This document shows positions 2,494-36,676 of a DNA stretch of 40,189 nt, one piece after another. The DNA is taken from IMG/VR virus record IMGVR_UViG_3300045988_065743; one strand, 5' to 3'. A program made the position numbers and the translations under genes. The DNA comes from a virus. How positions within the stretch are numbered: position 1 is the stretch's first letter; each line of letters starts with the position of its first letter. The notes beneath the pieces are model-generated. The model did not search any database. It was given only the letters and a program-made list of their open reading frames with translations, and had not been told where the DNA came from.

Positions 2494-2509
2494 TTGGAGG
2501 TGACGAGGG

Positions 2510-2683
2510 ATGACATTTGACGCGATTATTCACGATGCCGACAGCCTCCGAGACGCACTTTCCGATTCTCTTACTAACAATGTCTTACGAATTGATAATC
2601 TTTCGGAGGAGGATGCAGGGCAGTTAGCCAGCATTTTTACGGATCACGGAATCGGTATTTGCCTACTTCCGCGCAAGGAGTAA
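2510..2683 (+). CDS. Hypothetical small protein (57 aa)
   Basis: ATG at 2510 lies behind GGAGGTGACGAGGG. The ORF MTFDAIIHDADSLRDAL...LLPRKE fills the gap between ssb and the HNH gene. It is below the ORF-track cutoff. Confidence 0.45.
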   Translation: MTFDAIIHDADSLRDALSDSLTNNVLRIDNLSEEDAGQLASIFTDHGIGICLLPRKE

Positions 2684-2687
2684 GTGC

Positions 2688-3149
2688 ATGGCGGATATGA
2701 CATACATCAAGCTGTTCATCGATTACTTAGATGCGATAGAACCGCTCGGTGACGCAGAGAGGGGGCGGCTTTTCACTTCCTTGTTGGTTTATGCAAGGAC
2801 GGGCGAAGCCCCGCAGCTCGGCGGGAACGAACGGTTTTTATTCCCGATGATGCGGGCGCAGATCGACAGGGACAAGCCAAAATACAAGCGAGGAGAAAAC
2901 CACCCAAACTGGAAAGGCGGGATAACACCGGAAAACCAGAGAGAACGCGGTAGCTCAAAATACAGTAACTGGAGAAAGGATGTCTTTTCTCGGGATAATT
3001 ATACTTGCCAAATTTGTGGCATAAAAGGAGGAAAGCTGAACGCACACCATATAAAGCATTGGTCGGCATGCAAGGAACTACGGTTTTCTGCGGAAAATGG
3101 AATTACCCTCTGCGAATCATGCCACAAACAGATACACAGGAGAAAATGA
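2688..3149 (+). CDS. HNH endonuclease fused to a copy of the replisome-organizer N-terminal domain
   Basis: The C-terminus NYTCQICG...LNAHHIKHW...ENGITLCESCHKQIH is an HNH motif. The N-terminal ~60 aa (LGDAERGRLFTSLLVYARTGE...FLFPMMRAQIDRD) is paralogous to the start of the next gene. Confidence 0.8.
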   Translation: MADMTYIKLFIDYLDAIEPLGDAERGRLFTSLLVYARTGEAPQLGGNERFLFPMMRAQIDRDKPKYKRGENHPNWKGGITPENQRERGSSKYSNWRKDVFSRDNYTCQICGIKGGKLNAHHIKHWSACKELRFSAENGITLCESCHKQIHRRK

Positions 3150-3152
3150 GTC

Positions 3153-3773
3153 ATGGGGAAATGCTATGTCAAGGCTTATTATGACTGGATTGAGCAAACA
3201 GCCGCTTTGTCAGATGCCGAGCGAGGGAGACTATTTATCGCCGTACTGGAATACGCGCGGTCAGGTCTTGAACCAAAACTCGACGGGCGAGAAGGCATTC
3301 TGTTTCCGGTATTCCGAGCCACATTAGACCGAGATAATAAAATTTCAGAAACCAATTCAAAAAATGGTTCGCTTGGCGGGCGCGGCAACAAAGCGTACGA
3401 AAGCGAACGAAAGCGAAATAAAGCGACCGAAAGCGAACAAAAGGCTACTAAAGACAAAGACAAAGACAAAGACAAAGACAAAGACAAAGACAAAGACAAT
3501 AGCGCGTCGCCGTTTGAATCGTTTTGGGCGGCATATCCCAGAAAAGTCGGAAAGCAGGCCGCAAAGAAAGCATTTTCCAAGGTTTCCGTGCCGGTTAAAA
3601 CGCTTATCGATGCCGTCAACAGTCAGAAAAACAGCGAACAGTGGCGCAAGGATAACGGTCAATACATCCCAAACCCAGCCACATGGCTGAATCAAGGCCG
3701 ATGGGATGATGTGCTGACGGAGGCCGGAGCGCAACCAACGAAGGAGGAATACCATGTCGGAACATGGCTGTGA
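3153..3773 (+). CDS. Replisome organizer / DnaD-like replication initiation protein
   Basis: N-terminal LSDAERGRLFIAVLEYARSG domain, a (KD)8 linker, and a C-terminal FESFWAAYPRKVGK...IPNPATWLNQGRWDD block common in phage replication proteins. Sits just upstream of the loader. Confidence 0.65.
   Translation: MGKCYVKAYYDWIEQTAALSDAERGRLFIAVLEYARSGLEPKLDGREGILFPVFRATLDRDNKISETNSKNGSLGGRGNKAYESERKRNKATESEQKATKDKDKDKDKDKDKDKDNSASPFESFWAAYPRKVGKQAAKKAFSKVSVPVKTLIDAVNSQKNSEQWRKDNGQYIPNPATWLNQGRWDDVLTEAGAQPTKEEYHVGTWL
3390..3449 (+). repeat. Five to six tandem 10-bp iteron-like repeats (AAAGCGAACG consensus) inside the organizer gene; candidate ori
   Basis: aaagcgtacg aaagcgaacg aaagcgaaat aaagcgaccg aaagcgaaca aaaggctact, an exact 10-bp register. 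Confidence 0.6.
3450..3497 (+). repeat. (AAAGAC)x8 hexanucleotide tandem repeat encoding (KD)8
   Basis: Eight perfect copies were counted directly. In frame within the organizer CDS. Confidence 0.95.
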
Positions 3774-4422
3774 CATCTGCGGCGGGCTTGGCTACACCGT
3801 CCGGCGCACGGAAAACGGCGAGCTGGTGAGCAGCACTTGCAAATGCGAGATCATCCGGCAAAACAGAATTCGCATGGAGCGTTCCGGGCTGGCCGGTATG
3901 CTGGATAACTGCACATTCGAGGCATTCCAAACACGGGAGTATTGGCAACAGGCCGCAAAGCAAGCGGCGGAGAAGTATTTGACCGACTGGAAGGGCAAGT
4001 GGTTTTTCGTCGGCGGCTCTCCCGGAACTGGGAAAACCCACCTGTGTACGGCGATTTGTGCCAAGCTGATGGACGGCGGAATCCCTGTCCGGTATGTGCA
4101 ATGGCGGGGAGATATTCCGGCAATCAAGGCAAAAGTAAACGATGCGGAAGCATACGCCGAAGCCATGCACCCGCTGAAAACCGTCCGTGCGCTTTATATC
4201 GACGATTTTCTAAAGGGCAGCGTTACAGATGCCGACAAAAACATCGCCTTTGACCTGCTGAATGCCCGGTACATTGACCCGGATGCAATCACGATCATCT
4301 CCACGGAGTTGACCATTGACCGCATTTTGAGCTGGGATGAAGCCATCGGCAGCAGAATCAACCAGCGGGCGAGGGATTATATGCTTAACATCGGGAAAAA
4401 GCAGAATTGGAGGCTGAAATGA
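3754..4422 (+). CDS. DnaC/IstB-like AAA+ helicase loader
   Basis: 222 aa. Walker A GGSPGTGKTHL, Walker B ALYIDDF, and an N-terminal CxxC...CKC zinc motif. RBS AGGAGG. Confidence 0.85.
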   Translation: MSEHGCDICGGLGYTVRRTENGELVSSTCKCEIIRQNRIRMERSGLAGMLDNCTFEAFQTREYWQQAAKQAAEKYLTDWKGKWFFVGGSPGTGKTHLCTAICAKLMDGGIPVRYVQWRGDIPAIKAKVNDAEAYAEAMHPLKTVRALYIDDFLKGSVTDADKNIAFDLLNARYIDPDAITIISTELTIDRILSWDEAIGSRINQRARDYMLNIGKKQNWRLK

Positions 4423-4425
4423 TTG

Positions 4426-5835
4426 ATGGGGAGAACGGAGATGAAGCACCTCGGCGATATTACGAAAATCAACGGCGCAGAAATTGAAATCGTGGATGTT
4501 ATAACGGGCGGCTCGCCGTGCCAGGATTTGAGCATTGCAGGAAAACGCACTGGATTGGCGGGAGCGCGAAGCGGCCTGTTTATGGAGCAGGTACGCATCG
4601 TAAAAGAAATGAGAGCGGAGGACAAACGGAATGGACGGACAGGTGACATGGTCCGACCTCGGTTTCTCGTTTGGGAGAACGTTGTCGGAGCATTCAGCAG
4701 CAACAAAGGAAAAGACTTCGCAGCCGTGCTGGAAGAAATTGCGCGTATTGCACAACCAGGATTTTCTCTATCTGAACTGCCGGAAAAGTGGAAATGGACA
4801 AAAGCAGGAGCCATTGACGGTGATGGGTGGTCTATCGCTTGGCGAACTCATAACGCTAAATGCTGGGGAAAAACCATCCGAGACAGCCGTACAGGAAATG
4901 TTATCTGTCTGGGGACCCCACAGCGTCGCCGAAGAATCTCGGTTGTCGCAGATTTTGGAGGTGAATCCGCTGCCCAAATACAATTTGACCGCGAAAGCGT
5001 GTCTGGGCATCCTGCGGAGAGCGGAGCGTCGGGGGAAAGACTTGCAGAAGCTGCTGAAAGCGGTTTTAATCCGGCAGTCGCAAGGAGCCTTACCGCAAGA
5101 GCGGACGGAAGCCCCTGCGCCGACAGAGGCCCCAATAATGACTGCGCACCTGCATTGACTGCAGCGGCTGGCATGAGTGGGAACAATCAGCCAGTAGTGG
5201 CTATCCCCATCAACGACAAAGCCACCAGATGGCAGGGCGGTGGAGAGAGCCGCAACCACGATGGAAGCGGCAACGGTCTTGGCATCGGCAAAGAAGGCGA
5301 CCCATCACCCACACTGACCGCTGGCGACCGCCACGGGGTAGCATATATCTCAGGGTTTGACGGCTACAATGGCGGCCTGACCGGTGATGTCGCATCCACG
5401 ATTGGCATCAACTGCGGAATGTCCACTGGGCGAAGTGGCGTTATGGAACTATCTGCCAATGAGAATGGCGGAATGGCGCAGAACATGGTCGCGCGACGCC
5501 TTACCCCGATGGAGTGCGAACGGCTGCAAGGTTTCCCGGACGGATGGACCGACATCGGCGAGTGGCGCGACAGCAAGGGAAAGCTGCGCAAGCCGAGCGA
5601 CAGCCCGCGCTACAAGGCACTGGGTAACTCCATCGCCCTGCCCTTCTGGGATTTCCTGGCAAAGCGTATCAGTGCGCAATATCTTCGCCCTGTTACGATG
5701 GGGAGCCTGTTCGACGGCATTGGCGGCTTTCCGCTGGTGTTTGAGCGGCACAACGGCAAGGGCACGGCACGCTGGGCAAGCGAGATCGAGGAATTTCCTA
5801 TCGCCGTGACGAAACTGAGATTTGGGGAGGATTGA
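4426..5835 (+). CDS. DNA (cytosine-5)-methyltransferase, circularly permuted (motif order IV-VI-VIII-TRD-IX-X-I-II)
   Basis: Motif positions: GGSPCQDLS 4507-4533, VWENV 4669-4683, QRRRR 4921-4935, RLTPMECERLQGFP, YKALGNSIALP 5611-5643, MGSLFDGIGGF 5698-5730, WASEIE 5773-5790. The start is ambiguous (TTG 4423, ATG 4426 or ATG 4441). Confidence 0.8.
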   Translation: MGRTEMKHLGDITKINGAEIEIVDVITGGSPCQDLSIAGKRTGLAGARSGLFMEQVRIVKEMRAEDKRNGRTGDMVRPRFLVWENVVGAFSSNKGKDFAAVLEEIARIAQPGFSLSELPEKWKWTKAGAIDGDGWSIAWRTHNAKCWGKTIRDSRTGNVICLGTPQRRRRISVVADFGGESAAQIQFDRESVSGHPAESGASGERLAEAAESGFNPAVARSLTARADGSPCADRGPNNDCAPALTAAAGMSGNNQPVVAIPINDKATRWQGGGESRNHDGSGNGLGIGKEGDPSPTLTAGDRHGVAYISGFDGYNGGLTGDVASTIGINCGMSTGRSGVMELSANENGGMAQNMVARRLTPMECERLQGFPDGWTDIGEWRDSKGKLRKPSDSPRYKALGNSIALPFWDFLAKRISAQYLRPVTMGSLFDGIGGFPLVFERHNGKGTARWASEIEEFPIAVTKLRFGED

Positions 5836-5836
5836 C

Positions 5837-6136
5837 ATGACCACATTACGCATGATTCCCGGCATTACATACACCCGGAAAAACCTTGAAGCGCTCACCG
5901 GTATGACGGACAGAGCGAACAGGCACATGATCCGAGCGCAGCGGCGGCAGGGGGTGCCCATTGTGGCTCTGCCGGATGGAGGGTATAAACTGGCGGAGAC
6001 GGACGAGGAGAAGAAGATGCTCCTTGCCATGTACCGCAAGCGGGCGCTGGACGAGCTGGCCACATACAGCATGCTTGCAAAGGCTATGCAGGTGGATGGG
6101 CAGATGGAGGTGGCGGGAGATGGAACGGCGGTTTAA
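5837..6136 (+). CDS. Hypothetical small protein, possibly winged-helix
   Basis: ATG at 5837 behind GGGGAGG; 99 aa. Basic/helical core (RANRHMIRAQRRQGVPIVALPDGGYKL). Overlaps the next gene's start. Confidence 0.5.
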   Translation: MTTLRMIPGITYTRKNLEALTGMTDRANRHMIRAQRRQGVPIVALPDGGYKLAETDEEKKMLLAMYRKRALDELATYSMLAKAMQVDGQMEVAGDGTAV

Positions 6137-7199
6137 CACTCCGTTGACGAACGAGGCTGCCAAGAAATTGCTATCCCTTGATTTGGATGACAAGATCATC
6201 ACCAGCGTTGAGAAACTGGATGAGTGGTACACCGCGTGGGGCGGACAGTGTTATGTCAGCGTCTCTGGCGGCAAGGACAGCACGGTGCTGGCGTATCTGG
6301 CGGCGTGGTACCTGTCGAGCTTCAGGACACCGCCGTGGGAGCTGAACTTGGTGTTTGTGAACACGGGGCTGGAATATCCAGAGATACAGAAGTTCGTGAA
6401 TGAGCACGCCGCGTGGCTGCGGAGAGAGTTTTCTCACGTGACTGTCAATCTTGTACGCTTGCGTCCGAAGATGAACATCCGGCAGGTGGTGACGAAGTAC
6501 GGGTACAGCATCATCGGTAAAGAAGTAGCGCACCGGATAGAAACCGCGCGGCGTTCACCAGATAGCCGAAGTATGAAGCTATTGCGTGGGGAAGTCTTAC
6601 GCACCGATGGGGAAAAGAGCATATACAACTGCGAAAAGTGGGAGCATTTGCTTTCGGCTCCATTCCTCATATCCGACAAGTGTTGTGGAATTATGAAAAA
6701 GTCCCCGGCAAAGAGCTATGAGCACCGAGCAGATGCCAAACCCACGACGGCAACAATGGCGGAGGAAAGTCTTCTGCGGATGCAAAAATGGCGCGAAACC
6801 GGCTGCAACGCCTTTGAAGGAAGGCGCCCGATGGGAAAGCCCATGAGCTTTTGGACGGAGCAGGACGTACTACGGTTTATCGTAGATCGGCATATCCCTA
6901 TCGCAAGTGTCTACGGCGATATCGTAGCCAGTGACGGCGAGAACGACTATGCGGAAACGCTGATCGACTGCAAGCTGCATTGCACGGGTTGCCAGCGCAC
7001 GGGGTGCATGTTCTGTGCGTTCGGCGCTCATCTTGAAAAAGGCGAGAACCGATTTGAGCGCATGAAGCACACGCACCCGAAGCACTACGACTTTTGCATC
7101 GGCGGCGGGGCTTACGATCCTGCTGACGGGATGTGGAAGCCAACTGAAAAGGGGCTTGGCTACGCCAGAGTATTGGACTACATCGGAGTGAGGTATTGA
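6120..7199 (+). CDS. PP-loop ATP pyrophosphatase, PAPS-reductase-family protein with a C-terminal Cys cluster
   Basis: Start chosen at ATG 6120 (RBS GGAGGTGG). SVSGGKDST PP-loop. C-terminal CKLHCTGCQRTGCMFC cluster. Confidence 0.75.
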   Translation: MERRFNTPLTNEAAKKLLSLDLDDKIITSVEKLDEWYTAWGGQCYVSVSGGKDSTVLAYLAAWYLSSFRTPPWELNLVFVNTGLEYPEIQKFVNEHAAWLRREFSHVTVNLVRLRPKMNIRQVVTKYGYSIIGKEVAHRIETARRSPDSRSMKLLRGEVLRTDGEKSIYNCEKWEHLLSAPFLISDKCCGIMKKSPAKSYEHRADAKPTTATMAEESLLRMQKWRETGCNAFEGRRPMGKPMSFWTEQDVLRFIVDRHIPIASVYGDIVASDGENDYAETLIDCKLHCTGCQRTGCMFCAFGAHLEKGENRFERMKHTHPKHYDFCIGGGAYDPADGMWKPTEKGLGYARVLDYIGVRY

Positions 7200-7200
7200 G

Positions 7201-7398
7201 ATGACGGTATACATGCGAGTGAGCCGGGACAAGTACGAGCTGCCGGAGGCGGTGTCCGATTCCATCATTGAGCTTGCCAATATGTGCCATATTAACTGGC
7301 GCTCTATCTACAAGGCAGTATACAACAGCGGCAGACGGTACAAAGGACGGCCCGGCTATGTGGCGGTGTCCATCGAGGAAGGGGAGGAAGATGATTAA
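7201..7398 (+). CDS. Hypothetical protein (65 aa)
   Basis: RBS-preceded ORF packed tightly between neighbours, with an acidic tail EEGEEDD. Confidence 0.5.
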   Translation: MTVYMRVSRDKYELPEAVSDSIIELANMCHINWRSIYKAVYNSGRRYKGRPGYVAVSIEEGEEDD

Positions 7399-7771
7399 GA
7401 TAACTATCCCGATGCCGCCCGTCACAAAGAAGAACTCTATGCGGATCGTGCGCAACAGAAAAACGGGGAAGCGGCGTATCATGCCGTCCCAGCAGTATAT
7501 GGACTACGAGGCGGAAGCTTTATGGCACTGCAAAAGGGCCAGAGTGCAGCGCCCCATTGAGGAGCCTGTGGAGGTCAAATGCCTGTTTTATATGCCTACC
7601 CGGCGGCGAGTGGATTTGACAAATCTGCTGGAATCCATCGACGATGTGTTGGTAAGTGCCGGTGTGCTCAAGGACGACCACAGCGGCATTATCGTTAGCC
7701 ACGACGGGAGTCGGGTGCTGTATGACAAGGATAACCCCCGGACGGAGGTGTACATAGCCGACTATGAATGA
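7391..7771 (+). CDS. rusA: RusA-family Holliday junction resolvase
   Basis: ATG at 7391 behind GGGGAGGAAG. IPMPPVTKKNSMRIV...RRRVDLTNLLESIDDVLVSAGVLKDD fits the RusA pattern (PPS.N ... DldN..K...D.l...g...DD). Confidence 0.8.
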   Translation: MIKITIPMPPVTKKNSMRIVRNRKTGKRRIMPSQQYMDYEAEALWHCKRARVQRPIEEPVEVKCLFYMPTRRRVDLTNLLESIDDVLVSAGVLKDDHSGIIVSHDGSRVLYDKDNPRTEVYIADYE

Positions 7772-11423: not shown

Positions 11424-11837
11424 ATGGCTGGCGGAGCGCCGAGAAAATGGAAAAGCGTAAAGGCAATGCAGGAGGCAATTGACGCTTACTTCAAAGAGTG
11501 TGAGGGTGAGCCGTTTGTCGGCGATGACGGCTGTGCTGTGCGCGATAAGTACGGCATGCCGATTATCATCAATGCAAAGCCGCCGACAATCACAGGGCTT
11601 GCATTGGCACTTGGATTCACAGGGAGACAAGCGCTGCTGGATTATCAAGCAAGGCCAGAGTTTGCGGACACGGTTACGCGCGCGAAGTCCCGCTGCGAGG
11701 AATACGCCGAATCTCGGCTCTACGACAAAGACGGTGCGAACGGCGCGAAGTTTTCACTTGGCTGCAATTTTGGGTGGCGTGAAGTGAACGAGACAAAAAT
11801 AAGCACGGATTCCGTCAAGGTGGTTATTGATGTCTGA
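11424..11837 (+). CDS. terS: Terminase small subunit
   Basis: 137 aa immediately upstream of and overlapping terL. HTH-like PPTITGLALALGFTGRQAL. C-terminus typical of the phage small terminase family. Confidence 0.75.
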   Translation: MAGGAPRKWKSVKAMQEAIDAYFKECEGEPFVGDDGCAVRDKYGMPIIINAKPPTITGLALALGFTGRQALLDYQARPEFADTVTRAKSRCEEYAESRLYDKDGANGAKFSLGCNFGWREVNETKISTDSVKVVIDV

Positions 11838-13068
11838 TATTCTCTTGTCAGAAAAAATCGGCTCGGCGTTCTACGATGTGGCGCATGATGTGTTCCGCCA
11901 CGGTCACACGCACTACGATTTCAGCGGTGGTCGAGGGTCACTGAAGTCCTCCACGGTGTCTGTACTTGTCCCCCTGCTGCTGATAAACAATCCGGGGACA
12001 CACGCGCTGGTGCTGCGTAAGGTGGCAAACACCATCCGTGACAGCGTGTACGCACAGTATATCTGGGCAATCGGTGAGCTGGGTATGGCGGCGTATTGGG
12101 AAGCGAAGGTTTCTCCGATGGAACTGATTTATAAGCCTACCGGGCAGAAGATCATGTTCCGCGGTGCTGATGACCCGATGAAGATCAAGTCTATCAAGGT
12201 GCCGTTTGGCTATATCGCCGTGACGCACTTTGAAGAAAAAGACCAGTTTGCCGGTCGTGCCGAGATACGAACGATTTTGCAATCGACCATGCGCGGTGGA
12301 TCGAAGTATTGGAACTTTGAAAGCTACAACCCGCCGATAAGCCGCGATAACTGGGCGAACAAGGACAGCCTGGAAGAACGCACAGACAGGCTGTGCCACA
12401 AGTCAACGTACTTGCAAGCCCCGCCAGAGTGGCTGGGTGAGCAGTTTTTAGCGGAGGCGGAACATCTCAAGGCCACGGACGAGAGAGCGTACCAGCATGA
12501 GTATTTAGGTATTCCTGTGGGTACGGGCGGCAACGTGTTTGACAACCTGGAGCTGCGGGAAATCACTGACGAGGAAATGTCGCACTTCGACCACATCTAC
12601 CAAGGCGTGGACTACGGCTGGTTCCCTGACCCCTTTGCTTTTATCCGGCTGCATTACGACAGAGCGCGGGAGACTATCTATTTGATGGATGAGATATACC
12701 AAAACAAGCTCACAAACGAGGCAAGCGGGAACATCATCATTCAGCGTGGATATAAAGACGCATATATTACCTGCGACAGCGCGGAACCTAAAAGCGTAGC
12801 AGACTACCGCGCTATGAGCCTTCCGGCAAAGGCGGCGGTCAAAGGCCCCGGCTCTGTTGACTATGGTATGAAGTGGTTGCAGCGGCGCAAGATCGTCATA
12901 GACCGGAAACGCACACCAAACGCATACAATGAGTTTGTAAATTACGAATACGACCGAAACAAAGACGGAGATATTATCAGCGGCTACCCGGATGAGAATA
13001 ACCACTTGATAGATGCCACCCGGTACGCCGTTGAGCGCATTTCCCGTCGGATGGGAGTTATCGCATGA
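11830..13068 (+). CDS. terL: Terminase large subunit (PBSX/Terminase_3-like)
   Basis: 412 aa. Walker A-like FSGGRGSLKSS. A C-terminal nuclease block with acidic residues. Followed by the portal gene with an ATGA overlap. Confidence 0.9.
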   Translation: MSDILLSEKIGSAFYDVAHDVFRHGHTHYDFSGGRGSLKSSTVSVLVPLLLINNPGTHALVLRKVANTIRDSVYAQYIWAIGELGMAAYWEAKVSPMELIYKPTGQKIMFRGADDPMKIKSIKVPFGYIAVTHFEEKDQFAGRAEIRTILQSTMRGGSKYWNFESYNPPISRDNWANKDSLEERTDRLCHKSTYLQAPPEWLGEQFLAEAEHLKATDERAYQHEYLGIPVGTGGNVFDNLELREITDEEMSHFDHIYQGVDYGWFPDPFAFIRLHYDRARETIYLMDEIYQNKLTNEASGNIIIQRGYKDAYITCDSAEPKSVADYRAMSLPAKAAVKGPGSVDYGMKWLQRRKIVIDRKRTPNAYNEFVNYEYDRNKDGDIISGYPDENNHLIDATRYAVERISRRMGVIA

Positions 13069-14498
13069 GCAATGACGCAGTTATCAGAAAACTGAATGAG
13101 TTAGGTTATTCCACCATCACCGAAGCGTTTTACAGCAAAGTGGTGGAGTGGAAAAGCTGGTACCAGGGCAACGTGAAAGGTTTCCACAGCTACCGTGTCC
13201 GAAACGGCGAGAGCATGGTCAACTGCAAGCGGTATTCTCTCGGCATGGGGAAAAAACTGTGCGAGGATTGGGCGAACTTGCTGATGAACGAGAAAGTCAA
13301 GATCACCCTTGAAGAGCAGAAGGAACAGGAGTTCATCGACCGTGTTCTGACCGAGAACAATTTCACGGTCAAGGCGAACGAGATGCAAGAAATGAAGTCC
13401 GCGCTTGGCACGGTGGCCTATATCCCGCGCGTCGTCGGGCAGGAGATCAACGAGGGCGGCGAGATCGTCCCCGGCAATGCATCAGGCATCATTCTGGACT
13501 ATGTGACTATTGAGAACATTTACCCGCTGGCATGGCAAAATGGCTTTATCAGCGAGTGCGCGTTTTCCTCCGTTGTGACGCACAACGGCCACGCTTACCT
13601 GTATCTCCAAATCCACCACAAGGGCGAGGGCGGAAGCTACATCATCGACAATCGCATTTACCGTTATGATAACGAAATGCTGTCTGATGAGCAGCTTGCC
13701 AATGTCAAAGGCTTTGAGAATATCCCGCCTGTGGTATATACCGGCAGCGACAAGCGGCAGTTTGTTATTGACCGGCTCAACATTGCCAACAATTTCAACT
13801 ATCTGCTTCCGACCGGCATTGCAGTGTATGCAAACGCTATTGACGTGCTACAAGGCGTGGACATTGCGTACGACAGCTATGTAAATGAGTTCCGGCTGGG
13901 CAAAAAGCGAATCATGGTCAAGCCGTCTGCAGCAAAGTATCTGGACGGTGAGCCGGTATTCGACCCATCTGATGTGGCGTTTTATGTGCTTCCGGAGGAT
14001 GTGAGCGACGGCGCTGTTATTACACCCATCGACATGACCCTGCGGACAGCGGAGCATAACACGGGCATCCAAGACCAGCTCAATATCCTGTCCAGCAAAT
14101 GCGGCTTCGGCGAGACCTATTACCGTTTCGACGGCGGCAGCGTAGCGACTGCCACACAGGTCATCAGCGAGAACTCCACCATGTTCCGCACCATCAAAAA
14201 ACACGAGATCATCTTGGAGCAGGCATTGAAGGAGCTGTGCCGCATTCTGCTTCGGCTGGGCAACACGGCCATGAACGCTGGGCTGAATGAGGGTGTGGAA
14301 ATCTCCATCGACTTTGATGACAGCATCATTGAAGACAAGCAAACCGACTTTTCCCGCGATATGCAGCTTCTCAGTGCGGGCATTATAAACGATTGGGAGT
14401 TCCGCATGAAATGGATGAATGAGGACGAGGCGACCGCAAAGGCGGCACTACCGAAGATGCAGGAAATGACGACCGAAGGACAAGAGGAGGTAGAGTAA
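13065..14498 (+). CDS. Portal protein (SPP1 gp6-like)
   Basis: 477 aa. Position after terL, with the size and acidic C-terminus typical of siphovirus portals. Confidence 0.85.
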   Translation: MSNDAVIRKLNELGYSTITEAFYSKVVEWKSWYQGNVKGFHSYRVRNGESMVNCKRYSLGMGKKLCEDWANLLMNEKVKITLEEQKEQEFIDRVLTENNFTVKANEMQEMKSALGTVAYIPRVVGQEINEGGEIVPGNASGIILDYVTIENIYPLAWQNGFISECAFSSVVTHNGHAYLYLQIHHKGEGGSYIIDNRIYRYDNEMLSDEQLANVKGFENIPPVVYTGSDKRQFVIDRLNIANNFNYLLPTGIAVYANAIDVLQGVDIAYDSYVNEFRLGKKRIMVKPSAAKYLDGEPVFDPSDVAFYVLPEDVSDGAVITPIDMTLRTAEHNTGIQDQLNILSSKCGFGETYYRFDGGSVATATQVISENSTMFRTIKKHEIILEQALKELCRILLRLGNTAMNAGLNEGVEISIDFDDSIIEDKQTDFSRDMQLLSAGIINDWEFRMKWMNEDEATAKAALPKMQEMTTEGQEEVE

Positions 14499-35007: not shown

Positions 35008-36099
35008 TTATTTATTTGTTAGTAACGAGTTAGTAACGGCGGTCACCAGTGTTTCTGCGTCTATGTGGGTGTAAATGTTTGCCGTGGTGGAATAATCGGC
35101 GTGTCCGAGTATTTTTTGCAGCATTTCCGGGGCAAGACCTTCCTTGACCGCTCTCGATGTGTAGGTGTGGCGGGTAGAGTGCGGAGTTTTGCGCTCAATA
35201 CCCAGCCTGTCAAGGAGCGGGTAAAAATCGCGCCTGCGGAAGTTTGCCGGGACTTTTTGCCCATCGTACCCGGACAAAAGCAAATCGCCGGTGGCATGAC
35301 TGGCAAAGTAAGCAAAATACTGTTTCCCTTCCGGGCGAATGGGGATAATCCTATTTCTGCCCGCCTCGGTTTTCTCCCCGCCTACAACATAATCCCCGTG
35401 ATAGTCTGCCAAGGGCAGAGAGAACAATTCCCCAATCCGCATACCCGTTGCCAGCAGCATCAAGACGATTTTCGCTGTATCGCTGTTGTCACGCTCCAGC
35501 TTTTGGATATCTTCCGCCGTGAAGATGTCCTTTTCTTTTTTGACATTCTCCGGCAGATGCACGAACTTTGCAAAATTTGTCGTGCATATTTCCTCCCGGA
35601 TTGCCCAATTCGACATTTGCGTTATCAGCTGCTTGTACTTGTTTACGGTTGAATGGCTCTTGCCCATGTGCGGGTCAAGTACGTCCTGGAAGTCTGCCGT
35701 GCGGAGGTCACGGAACTTTTTGCTATGCAACGGAGCAAAAACCTTGTAGGCCGTGTTATAGGAATCAATCCCCTGCTTGCCGATCTCCTTGTAATGCTCC
35801 TCTTTCCACGCATCAAAGACTTCCGCAAAGGTCATATTATACCGCTCCGTTAAGATTTTTCCGTTCAACCGCTCCAAAGCGTCCAGAGCGTCCGTTTTGC
35901 GCTCATAGTGCCCAATAATCACTTTGTTTTTTGCGGCCACCCAAGGCGATTTTCTACGCCCCGCCAGTTTGTATACAGTTCCGGTGCCGTTTGCCCGCTT
36001 CAATGCTTTTCGCCGCTCTGTTACCTGTTTTTTGCCACAGAGATGGCAATATACGGCGCCCGGGACAAGAGCTGTTCCGCATTTAATGCAGTTGCTCAT
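35008..36099 (-). CDS. int: Tyrosine integrase with an N-terminal zinc ribbon
   Basis: Start at the MSNCIKCG...CHLCG Met (36099). Catalytic region ...ATGMRIGEL...HSTRHTYTS...LGHADYSTTANIYTH (R..HxxR..Y). Confidence 0.9.
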   Translation of the reverse strand: MSNCIKCGTALVPGAVYCHLCGKKQVTERRKALKRANGTGTVYKLAGRRKSPWVAAKNKVIIGHYERKTDALDALERLNGKILTERYNMTFAEVFDAWKEEHYKEIGKQGIDSYNTAYKVFAPLHSKKFRDLRTADFQDVLDPHMGKSHSTVNKYKQLITQMSNWAIREEICTTNFAKFVHLPENVKKEKDIFTAEDIQKLERDNSDTAKIVLMLLATGMRIGELFSLPLADYHGDYVVGGEKTEAGRNRIIPIRPEGKQYFAYFASHATGDLLLSGYDGQKVPANFRRRDFYPLLDRLGIERKTPHSTRHTYTSRAVKEGLAPEMLQKILGHADYSTTANIYTHIDAETLVTAVTNSLLTNK

Positions 36100-36676
36100 T
36101 TTCTGCTTCCTCGCCTTGTTTGGATTTTTTGCCCGCCGCAAGAGTGGACAATAGCACGGATGTAAGTACGCCGATTCCCAACGCCAAAAGCGCAATGGCA
36201 ATCCATGCAATCGTACCGGCTGTCCTGGATCGGATTAGGCCTTCGTCCTGCACACGGTAATCAAGCGCCACATACCATGTAACTATACCCAGCAGGATAG
36301 CGGACAGCAGCGATGTGATATACAGCATCGTGCGCTGCCGCCTTGCTTTTTTCTTCTGCTCCTCTGCTGATTTGGACAGTTCATCGTATGCGCCCTCTAT
36401 CCGTGCAAGGCGCACATCCTCGTCATGGACTTGCTGGAGCTGCTTGATTTGGTCTTGCGCCAAAACAATCTCCTCAATTCCAAAGTAACGGTCAATGGAC
36501 ACCCCCAGCACCTTGCAGATTGGCCCGGCTGCATACACGCCCGGTGCTTTGGATGTGGATGCAAAGAAATTGTTGACGCTGGACAAAGGCACACCGGATT
36601 GGTCTGCTATCTCCTGCGCCGTGATGTGCTGTTCCAGTTTTGCGTCCCGGCAAGTGTCCTGCAACGATTTCTCCAT
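36083..36676 (-). CDS. Membrane-tethered XRE-type HTH protein (HTH, coiled coil, 2 TM)
   Basis: ITAQEIADQSGVPLSSVNNFF...ICKVLGVSIDRYFG HTH. TMs at MLYITSLLSAILLGIVTWYVAL and IAWIAIALLALGIGVLTSVLL. Overlaps the int start. Confidence 0.7.
   Translation of the reverse strand: MEKSLQDTCRDAKLEQHITAQEIADQSGVPLSSVNNFFASTSKAPGVYAAGPICKVLGVSIDRYFGIEEIVLAQDQIKQLQQVHDEDVRLARIEGAYDELSKSAEEQKKKARRQRTMLYITSLLSAILLGIVTWYVALDYRVQDEGLIRSRTAGTIAWIAIALLALGIGVLTSVLLSTLAAGKKSKQGEEAENEQLH

Follow-up and report, generated by a model that had tools for sequence, protein, structure and literature searches.

The 40,189-nucleotide stretch of viral DNA recorded as IMGVR_UViG_3300045988_065743 in IMG/VR (here called the window) carries, at positions 4441 to 5835, an open reading frame (ORF) that very probably encodes a real and probably active natural C5-cytosine DNA methyltransferase of circularly permuted, Class B topology, as judged from sequence comparison and a structural model. 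Motifs I and II, which form part of the S-adenosylmethionine (AdoMet)-binding site, stand at the C terminus of this protein, and the polypeptide begins with motif III. Sequence comparisons support the permutation as real, exact, and unit-length to within 1 to 2 residues. A second conserved ORF is nested in the +1 frame of the same gene. The original prediction, drawn from the letters of the window, had proposed a circular permutation but had overlooked the nested ORF; its motif coordinates were all correct (GGSPCQDLS, 4507 to 4533; VWENV, 4669 to 4683; QRRRR, from 4921; YKALGNSIALP, 5611 to 5643; MGSLFDGIGG, from 5698; and WASEIE, from 5773).

In-frame alternative starts for the methyltransferase ORF are found at TTG 4423 and ATG 4426, the latter being the origin of a 469-residue numbering. 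ATG 4441 is probably the conserved start, because GGGGAG (4428 to 4433) precedes it by 7 nucleotides and M[KVIR]H[LYF]GD is the opening sequence of nearly all homologues. The features of the gene are as follows; invariance refers to a conservation alignment of 88 sequences reaching down to 49% identity, and model values are predicted local distance difference test (pLDDT) scores from AlphaFold2.

4441-5835, plus strand: permuted C5-cytosine DNA methyltransferase ORF, 464 amino acids plus stop (stop codon 5833-5835), uninterrupted
4447-4464, plus strand: motif III, HLGDIT, now N-terminal; aligned to M.HhaI 56-62; G5 and D6 nearly invariant
4507-4533, plus strand: motif IV, GGSPCQDLS, with catalytic Cys27; G24, P26, C27, and Q28 invariant
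4669-4683, plus strand: motif VI, VWENV; E79 and N80 invariant
4864-4911, plus strand: subfamily-specific insertion of ~16 residues, WG-KTIRDSRTGNVICL-GTPQRRRR, between motifs VII and VIII; in the A1 consensus, not in the A2 consensus; model pLDDT ~62
4921-4962, plus strand: motif VIII, QRRRR, and the next strand, ISVVADFGG; Q161, R162, R163, and R165 invariant
4963-5493, plus strand: variable target-recognition region with repeated T(L/V)-type modules (SLTARADGSP, PALTAAAGMSGNNQP, SPTLTAGDRHGV, ASTIGINCGMSTGR); low model pLDDT
5494-5547, plus strand: motif IX, RRLTPMECERLQGFPDGW; R352, T355, P356, and E358 invariant
5611-5643, plus strand: motif X, YKALGNSIALP; G395, N396, and S397 invariant
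5644-5697, plus strand: fusion linker from the old C terminus (motif X helix) to the old N terminus, FWDFLAKRISAQYLRPVT; homologous linker shared with Class B and H-like relatives; residues 400-411 modeled as a helix
5698-5736, plus strand: motif I, MGSLFDGIGGFPL (FxGxG AdoMet loop), now near the C terminus; aligned to M.HhaI 14-26; L423, F424, G426, G429, and F430 invariant
5773-5790, plus strand: motif II, WASEIE, with the acidic residue that binds the AdoMet ribose; E448 invariant; strand 443-447 in the model
5791-5835, plus strand: helix EFPIAVTKLRFGED and stop codon; the end point is where the canonical sequence goes on with M-K-H-L-G-D

The motif order is thus III-IV-VI-VIII-variable region-IX-X-I-II, and the canonical linear order from I to X is not found. 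Profile and pairwise searches gave the same order. The protein matched Pfam PF00145 with 113.7 bits (cut-off, 22) in three stretches, the best of which started at profile position 45 to 46, and it matched TIGR00675 with 106.3 (cut-off, 100.65). In phmmer searches of the PDB (469-residue numbering from 4426), M.HhaI residues 14 to 55 (motifs I and II) aligned to query residues 425 to 468, residues 56 to 112 (motifs III and IV) aligned to 7 to 63, and residues 235 to 320 (motifs IX and X) aligned to 316 to 417, which places the breakpoint at M.HhaI 55/56. When the last 45 residues were moved to the front, the N-terminal Pfam match became one contiguous stretch (profile positions 5 to 131), and the score rose to 126.5 bits. 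The Pfam and phmmer results together therefore set the cut between motifs II and III. The permutation inferred in the original prediction was accordingly confirmed by a split and reordered match, with the exact position of the cut revised: it had been placed between motifs II and IV, and HLGDIT, which is motif III, turned out to be N-terminal.

The reordered protein retains the residues of a working C5-methyltransferase. The catalytic motifs IV (PCQ cysteine), VI (ENV), and VIII (QxRxR) are all present, as are the AdoMet-binding residues F424-G426-G428/G429, E448, D6, and G395-N396, invariant or nearly so. Across the 88 sequences, the invariant positions are the functional ones, in motifs IV, VI, VIII, IX, X, I, and II. 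The C-terminal block, for which kinship to motifs I and II had been claimed, is genuine by its alignment to M.HhaI and by the invariance of L423, F424, G426, G429, F430, and E448. Codon-position entropy at motifs IV, IX, and I-II was 1.2 to 1.9 bits at position 3 and 0 to 0.6 bits at positions 1 and 2 of the motif cores; in the motif I-II region, position 3 had 1.3 to 1.8 bits versus 0 to 0.3 for positions 1 and 2 at the motif I core. This pattern shows purifying selection on a single frame at motifs IV, IX, and I-II.

The predicted structure agrees with this assignment. An AlphaFold2 model built with 47 close homologues (pLDDT, 40.5) was discarded, and the 88-sequence alignment was used instead, resulting in a model with a pLDDT of 70.8, a predicted template modeling score (pTM) of 0.68, and a catalytic core above 90. 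The C-terminal unit (residues 420 to 461; pLDDT, 94 to 98) was modeled as strand 420-423, helix 429-438, strand 443-447, and helix 451-461; in the model, this is the strand 1/helix A/strand 2/helix B unit that opens canonical enzymes. A Foldseek search of the PDB returned M.HhaI as the top match (E value, 3.7e-8; probability, 1.0; root mean square deviation, 1.8 to 3.0 Å over 167 to 180 columns), followed by M.MpeI, M.HaeIII, DRM (PDB 4onj and 7l4c among the matches), and DNMT1. The pTM and these matches indicate a predicted C5-methyltransferase three-dimensional fold. By fold and motifs, the window protein is a member of the C5-methyltransferase superfamily that lies outside the canonical topology class.

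The permuted order is widespread. Of the 120 closest clusters at 90% identity, 118 share the start, the end, and the motif order; these proteins are 464 to 738 amino acids long, with variable regions of very different length, and they come from JGI, ENA, NCBI, and Logan assemblies. Four contigs, the longest of 41 kb, carry the identical protein. When 1.84 billion cluster representatives were scanned exhaustively with HMMER, 2,335 proteins were returned at E<=1e-30; of the 149 best representatives of 50%-identity clusters, no fewer than 114 had the permuted order, 5 were H-like (IX-X-I...VIII), and 4 were canonical. Colinear matches were found in 80 GTDB genomes, mostly metagenome-assembled genomes of Oscillospiraceae, Ruminococcaceae, Lachnospiraceae, and Christensenellales, and also in isolates (Gemmiger sp. 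An87, Intestinibacillus massiliensis Marseille-P3216T, and Faecalibacterium tardum CLA-AA-H175). The cultured Faecalibacterium phages FP_Toutatis and Lelie have the same motif order, as two overlapping ORFs. Three short members (P0121, P0122, and P0131; 197 to 238 amino acids) lack internal segments, so that motif VI or VIII runs straight into IX or X, followed by I-II; they are probably deletion derivatives or assembly collapses.

The Class B arrangement, in which the new N terminus lies between motifs II and III and the old termini are fused, has been described in engineered proteins. Slaska-Kiss et al. (2018; PMC5944983) constructed permutants of M.MpeI and M.SssI, among which those of Class B (cp62M.MpeI and cp58M.SssI) were the most active, cp62 being comparable to the wild type. 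Activity was likewise seen in M.HaeIII permutants whose N terminus lies between motifs II and III (Peisajovich et al. 2006, as summarised in PMC5944983). The window protein has the features of this class: a new N terminus in the II-III loop, the motif X helix fused to motif I, and the order III...X-I-II. Unlike the engineered permutants, which are laboratory constructs of CG- or GGCC-specific enzymes, it belongs to a large natural family with a native linker of ~18 residues and a long modular recognition region. In a 2018 scan of REBASE, the cut lay in the variable region in every one of the 27 natural permuted enzymes detected, and Class B was noted as missing in nature (PMC5944983); a December 2025 classification preprint recognizes only two 5-methylcytosine topologies, canonical C and F (equivalent to zeta, including M2.Eco31I). 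No natural Class B enzyme was found in the searchable literature, including the searchable papers that cite the 2018 study. The topology had been put forward as new, and this holds for natural enzymes in that literature; it does not hold for the fold, since active Class B forms of M.HaeIII, M.MpeI, and M.SssI have been engineered. The window protein is therefore a natural and abundant instance of a topology known only from engineering and is not a new fold.

The cut also differs from those of the known natural permutants, as had been stated for M.BssHII and plant DRM. Zeta enzymes (Type H or topology F; M.BssHII, M.Alw26I, M2.Eco31I, M.Esp3I, and M2.BsaI) are likewise natural permutations of the same fold in which motif X is followed by motif I, but they are cut in the variable region, with IX-X before I-VIII and both domains intact, whereas the window protein is cut inside the AdoMet-binding half of the large domain, and its motifs IX and X follow VIII and precede only I-II. 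In plant DRM enzymes, including DRM2, the C5-methyltransferase motifs are also rearranged with the fold preserved, and motifs VI-X precede I-V. These eukaryotic proteins differ in their cut point and are of independent origin; in the window protein, motifs III and IV precede VI. The canonical members of the clade (Javan105 QBX13763.1, the C5 domain of P1 Dmt, and split forms such as L001) are 33 to 70% identical and share the motif sequences of the window protein (GSLFDGIGGFPL, WASEIE.FPI.VT, HLGDITK, GSPCQDLS, VWENVPGAFSS, GVPQRRRRI.LVADFGG, RRLTP.ECERLQGFPDGW, and YKALGNS), a modular recognition region of the same kind, and the nested +1 ORF; unlike the window protein, they have motifs I through X in canonical order, and in some of them a break after motif VIII divides the gene into two ORFs. 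The multispecific C5-methyltransferases of Bacillus phages (M.SPRI, M.Phi3TI, and M.Rho11sI) are orphan enzymes with tandem short T(L/V)-type modules between motifs VIII and IX. The window protein resembles them as an orphan phage enzyme with modules of this type, whereas their order is canonical and their multispecificity has been demonstrated; the window protein may be multispecific.

The relatives also bear on how the permutation arose. A synthetic "de-permuted" N-terminal query retrieved many canonical-order relatives of ~70% identity that read M..(T)MGSLFDGIGGFPL..WASEIE.FPI.VTK.RFP(D/E)M.H(V/L)GDITK, and the enzyme of Streptococcus phage Javan105 has the same canonical layout. The window protein starts at the internal Met of the canonical M.H(V/L)GDITK and ends with ...VTKLRFGED; as had been noted, it begins where its own C-terminal block breaks off, and in these relatives the two ends abut. 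The Met in TMGSLFDG, which had been taken for the ancestral initiator, is not a conserved relic, the family consensus at that position being Leu (ATLGSLFDG). Five H-like permutants occur in the clade of the window protein (P0303, P0282, P0351, P0362, and P0371) and share the X-to-I fusion linker; thus, at least three topologies coexist among close relatives. Two of them (P0303 and P0282) run from the target-recognition region through IX, X, the same X-to-I linker, I, II, and the canonical II-III junction to III...VIII and a further recognition region. With the X-to-I linker and an intact II-III junction, they represent another phase of the same circle, as duplication and truncation would predict.

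These comparisons support the origin by tandem duplication and truncation at both ends that had been proposed. Tandem gene copies would have fused in frame, joining X to I; the front copy would then have lost I-II, the back copy would have lost everything after II, and the preexisting internal Met would have become the new start. The search for relatives with the same order or an intermediate order bore out this scheme in part: the permuted order and unpermuted relatives were found, but none of 269 proteins had motifs I-II at both ends.

In the model that we propose, the product would be a functional orphan C5-cytosine DNA methyltransferase made as a single chain and encoded by a temperate Caudoviricetes phage that infects gut Clostridia (hosts of the Oscillospiraceae type). 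The N-terminal part would supply motif III, the catalytic Cys loop (IV), ENV (VI), and QxRxR (VIII); the variable region would supply target recognition, followed by IX and X. From the motif X helix, the chain would pass through the linker of ~18 residues into strand 1, the FxGxG loop, helix A, and strand 2, so that the C-terminal motifs I-II would complete the Rossmann-type AdoMet pocket. The modular recognition region would direct the enzyme to one or more short sites in phage and lysogen DNA, and methylation there would protect the DNA against host restriction.

Two alternatives would leave no active permuted enzyme. The permuted order could be an artefact of misassembly, a chimeric contig, or the collapsed tandem repeat of a canonical gene; metagenome assemblies can misjoin repeats and duplicated genes, and the two junctions were judged here from assembled sequence. 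However, the start (M.HLGDI) and the end (WASEIE.FPIAVTK.RF..) recur in the 118 of 120 closest clusters and in at least 114 of the 149 diverse representatives, from several assembly sources, the order is also present in isolate genomes and in two cultured, independently sequenced Faecalibacterium phages, and the flanking genes abut the methyltransferase ORF tightly, each with its own ribosome-binding site. Because the order recurs in hundreds of independent assemblies, in isolate genomes, and in cultured phages, misassembly is excluded for practical purposes. It is also improbable, although less extremely so, that the gene is a decaying remnant that no longer methylates DNA or has been recruited to a noncatalytic role. 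Orphan prophage methyltransferases are often pseudogenized, and several related loci have frameshifts or internal deletions (P0121, P0122, P0131, L023, L053, and L062); set against this are the catalytic and cofactor residues, all invariant across the 88 sequences, the strong purifying selection in motifs IV, IX, and I-II, an ORF intact over 464 codons, and the full activity of the engineered equivalent.

Several observations weigh against reading the gene as a complete, active Class B enzyme of single origin. The recognition region (residues 186 to 340) was poorly modeled (pLDDT, 25 to 47), and the packing of strand 1 beside the core sheet is suggested by confidence values and secondary structure, not by coordinates. 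The structural comparison with M.HhaI that had been called for gave M.HhaI as the best match, but Foldseek aligned only the colinear N-terminal half, as expected of a sequential aligner. A quick neighbor-joining tree of the III-VIII core (304 sequences, with biased sampling) gave no answer on the monophyly or single origin of Class B; in the same tree, canonical, H-like, and B forms were interleaved at 60 to 80% identity. The methylation activity of the family is a prediction from sequence and model. In about one-fifth of the related loci, the gene is broken into two or three frames, and some of these copies may be inactive or may work as split enzymes. Finally, the single chain may not be the whole enzyme, because its own frame lacks the LSQILE..KYYLS segment, which is encoded by the nested ORF.

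The nested ORF and its elements are located as follows.

4617-4622, plus strand: GGAGGA, putative ribosome-binding site, 8 nucleotides upstream of the nested ATG 4631
4631-5158, plus strand: nested overlapping ORF in the +1 frame, 175 codons, indicated by stop depletion, consistent limits, and an ATG
4943-5077, plus strand: C-terminal domain of the nested ORF, conserved, LSQILEVNPLPKYNLTAKACLGILRRAERRGKDLQKLLKAVLIRQ; amino acid selection here acts on the +1 frame and not on the methyltransferase frame

The +1-frame stop TGA (4610 to 4612), which is the TGA inside the codons for K-E-M-R, lies just before GGAGGA. The consensus of the nested domain is LSQILE..P.PKY.LSAKAC.GIL.RA.RRGK.LP..L..AL, and the methyltransferase frame over the same nucleotides is a poorly conserved linker. 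The nested-ORF translation matched the tails of database proteins. Two features of the subfamily-specific insertion at 4864 to 4911 were also observed: in the methyltransferase frame, KTIRDSRTGNVICL resembles a degenerate duplicate of the motif VIII segment, and the +1 frame duplicates part of the nested protein (GEKPSETAVQEMLS/GPHSVAEESRLS).

Selection on the two frames was compared in 63 to 65 nonidentical related loci, in a gapless alignment at motif VIII. From nucleotides −30 to +27 of motif VIII, position 3 of the methyltransferase frame (frame A) was the most variable (~1.05 bits versus 0.13 to 0.48); from +27 to +81, all three codon positions were constrained; and from +81 to +135, position 1 of frame A, which is position 3 of the +1 frame, was the most variable (1.39 to 1.58 bits versus 0.44 to 0.72). 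Amino acid identity at +102 nucleotides was 0.67 in the +1 frame and 0.24 in frame A. In 64 to 65 loci, stops in the +1 frame fell from 3 to 12 per 100 codons to 0 to 0.9 per 100 between −80 and +50 codons of motif VIII, with +2-frame stops at 1 to 8 per 100 codons throughout. The limits of the nested ORF were consistent (median, 85 codons upstream and 67 downstream of motif VIII), and an ATG lay within a few codons of its 5' end in about three-fourths of the loci (about 74%), often with AGGAGA 9 nucleotides upstream. An open +1 frame due to base composition was rejected, given that stops reach 3 to 12 per 100 codons elsewhere in the genes, that the +2 frame is not depleted, and that the ORF persists at 36 to 38% GC. 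A single obligatory shift from frame A to +1 at the RRRR codons was also rejected, given that frame A is conserved for 18 more codons and the +1 frame is open from 85 codons upstream.

The nested ORF is present in further relatives of the window gene (L083, 485 to 880; L084; L087; and L088, 2159 to 2650), inside the canonical enzymes of two Streptococcus phages of 36 to 38% GC, Javan105 (where it starts with ATG and has 131 codons) and Javan422, and in Vibrio phage 234P10. A tblastn search with a 46-residue nested consensus returned 137 phage records, with hosts including Vibrio, Mycobacterium, Escherichia, Pseudomonas, Caulobacter, and others; the match nearly always lay under an annotated (cytosine) methyltransferase or a dmt/dam-type gene, and a few records had a hypothetical-protein label or no annotation. 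In the P1-like phage JL22, a 163-codon open frame with +1 offset lies inside dmt. The mean column identity of the nested peptide across phyla is 58%. The ORF occurs in canonical, split, and permuted relatives and so is not tied to the permutation. It had no separate gene annotation in the four records opened (Javan105, Javan422, Vibrio phage 234P10, and JL22), and no overlapping gene in phage C5-methyltransferase genes was found in the searchable literature. Searches of Pfam, PHROGs, and the PDB, by single sequence and by profile, gave nothing significant for the nested domain (best, a weak match to phrog_16143, "DNA methyltransferase"; E value, 0.004), and a homology search with the 52-residue +1 peptide found only 25 short ORFs (63 to 91 amino acids) with no annotation and no unrelated protein family.

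The arrangement of the two frames varies. Frame A continues for 230 codons or more in 52 of 65 loci, which thereby encode the enzyme as one chain, with the nested ORF as a discrete unit. Six loci have an alpha/beta split, in which frame A stops 41 to 109 codons past motif VIII and the +1 ORF goes on for 341 to 513 codons through the target-recognition region, IX, and X (and, in some, I-II); in these split loci (L001, 6001 to 8104; L023; L033; L039; L045; and L046), the two ORFs overlap by ~150 codons. In ~12 of 65 loci (in GTDB genomes, e.g., L024, L032, L037, L059, L067, and L071; also FP_Toutatis), motifs III-VI are in a different frame from VII-VIII. In FP_Toutatis (L002, 2501 to 3912), ORF 2501-3106 encodes III-VI and then the nested-frame peptide, and ORF 2884-3912 encodes VIII, the target-recognition region, IX, X, and I-II. 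In P0339, P0153, and P0166, motif VI is read straight into the nested frame, without motif VIII. The frame-mismatched loci and these three proteins may be split enzymes, frameshift-dependent genes, pseudogenes, or sequencing errors.

M.EcoHK31I is also encoded by a C5-methyltransferase gene with a second overlapping protein-coding frame: its activity depends on a beta chain that is read from the alpha gene in a different frame (PMC2836561). The window gene likewise appears, from its sequence, to encode a second polypeptide in another frame. The beta chain of M.EcoHK31I carries motif IX and lies between VIII and X, whereas the nested chain has no motif IX, which is in the main frame. The beta chain comprises 61 amino acids; the nested ORF, in comparison, has 130 to 175 codons, spans motifs VI-VIII plus 60 codons, contains no known motif, and is found in many phage lineages.

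The nested product may be an accessory subunit or a regulator. We tentatively propose, as a reading that stops somewhat short of probable, that the C5-methyltransferase genes of this clade (in phages of Clostridia, Streptococcus, Vibrio, and Mycobacterium and in P1-like phages; canonical, split, or permuted) encode two proteins over ~150 overlapping codons, the second being a conserved protein of 130 to 175 amino acids that ends LSQ(I/V)LE..P.(K/R)Y(Y/F)LS.(K/R)AC.GIL(R/K)RA..R.K.LP..L..AL and serves as an essential small subunit or regulator. A stronger form, compatible with the Class B reading of the window protein, would make the single chain only part of the enzyme, with the nested product needed as a small subunit, or would make the family basically one of two polypeptides with interchangeable arrangements. 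This form is possible but rather unlikely: the conservation of the nested ORF, its frame-specific selection, its ribosome-binding site and ATG, its occurrence across phyla nearly always in C5-methyltransferase genes, and the continuation of the +1 ORF into the recognition region, IX, X, and (in some) I-II in the six split loci all argue for it, but the nested protein has no recognized methyltransferase motif, unlike EcoHK31I beta with its motif IX, and no relative in Pfam, in the PDB, or (clearly) in PHROGs. With a 5'-end ATG in only ~74% of loci, its translation route is putative, as is its interaction with the methyltransferase. We consider it unlikely, more so than a needed subunit, that the +1 frame is reached by programmed ribosomal frameshifting, which would yield a shorter isoform made of the N-terminal catalytic part and the LSQILE..RRGK.LP tail. 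Such a fusion is hard-wired in FP_Toutatis ORF 2501-3106 and in P0339, P0153, and P0166, and the 5' ATG is not universal; however, no conserved slippery site or stimulator was identified, and stop depletion starts ~85 codons upstream at a fixed place, mostly followed by ATG and often with AGGAGA or GGAGGA at 8 to 9 nucleotides, which fits initiation. Both frames are constrained over ~18 codons, a further point against frameshifting; under either mechanism, therefore, two products would be made.

The window is a temperate phage or prophage of ~40 kb, in which the methyltransferase gene lies in the replication module, between the DnaC-like loader and a phosphoadenosine phosphosulfate (PAPS)-reductase-like gene. 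Other genes in the window are listed below.

2688-3149: HNH endonuclease
3153-3773: replication initiator
3754-4422: DnaC-like helicase loader
5837-6136: small ORF downstream of the methyltransferase
5961-7199: PAPS-reductase-like gene (phrog_424), just downstream of the methyltransferase, after the small ORF
7268-7771: RusA
11827-13068: large terminase
13065-14498: portal
19246-20460: major capsid protein
35008-36210, minus strand: integrase

No endonuclease gene adjoins the methyltransferase in the window, which is therefore regarded as an orphan enzyme. The usual role of orphan phage methyltransferases is self-protection against host restriction, and PAPS-reductase-like genes are often linked to DNA modification modules in phages. 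At the 3' end of the gene, GGGGAGGA in the C-terminal helix segment is the ribosome-binding site of the next gene (ATG 5837), and within 5824 to 5839 the final methyltransferase codons (GGGGAGGATTGA) double as that site; the C-terminal residues G-E-D are thus constrained, because their codons also serve the next gene. Upstream, ORFs 2688-3149 and 3153-3773 share a homologous N-terminal domain (both match phrog_16304; ...DAERGRLF...YAR(T/S)G...), which is fused to an HNH nuclease in the former and to a replication-initiator domain in the latter and looks like a local duplication. At ~3480 to 3530, a short tandem DNA repeat within ORF 3153-3773 specifies a low-complexity stretch of (Lys-Asp)n, KDKDKDKDKDKDKD.

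C5-methyltransferases serve as a standard example of how protein topology evolves through duplication and truncation. Directed-evolution and design studies found the II-III cut to be the best-tolerated permutation, and surveys of natural enzymes, with only variable-region permutants among them, prompted the view that a split in the AdoMet-binding subdomain is avoided in nature, perhaps because cofactor binding would be weaker. A large and diverse natural family with the II-III cut removes that apparent constraint and provides natural material for testing the cofactor-affinity hypothesis; together with the canonical and H-like sisters of its clade, it also offers a series of natural forms that bears on the model of permutation by duplication. 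Annotation software that looks for motif I at the start, or that sorts methyltransferases by topology, will mishandle these abundant gut-phage enzymes. The nested ORF, if translated, would be among the most widely conserved same-strand overlapping genes in phages and could change the understanding of enzymes such as P1 Dmt. If this is true, an old and widespread overlapping gene would have been overlooked even in dmt of phage P1, alongside a natural Class B permutation that had been thought absent from nature.

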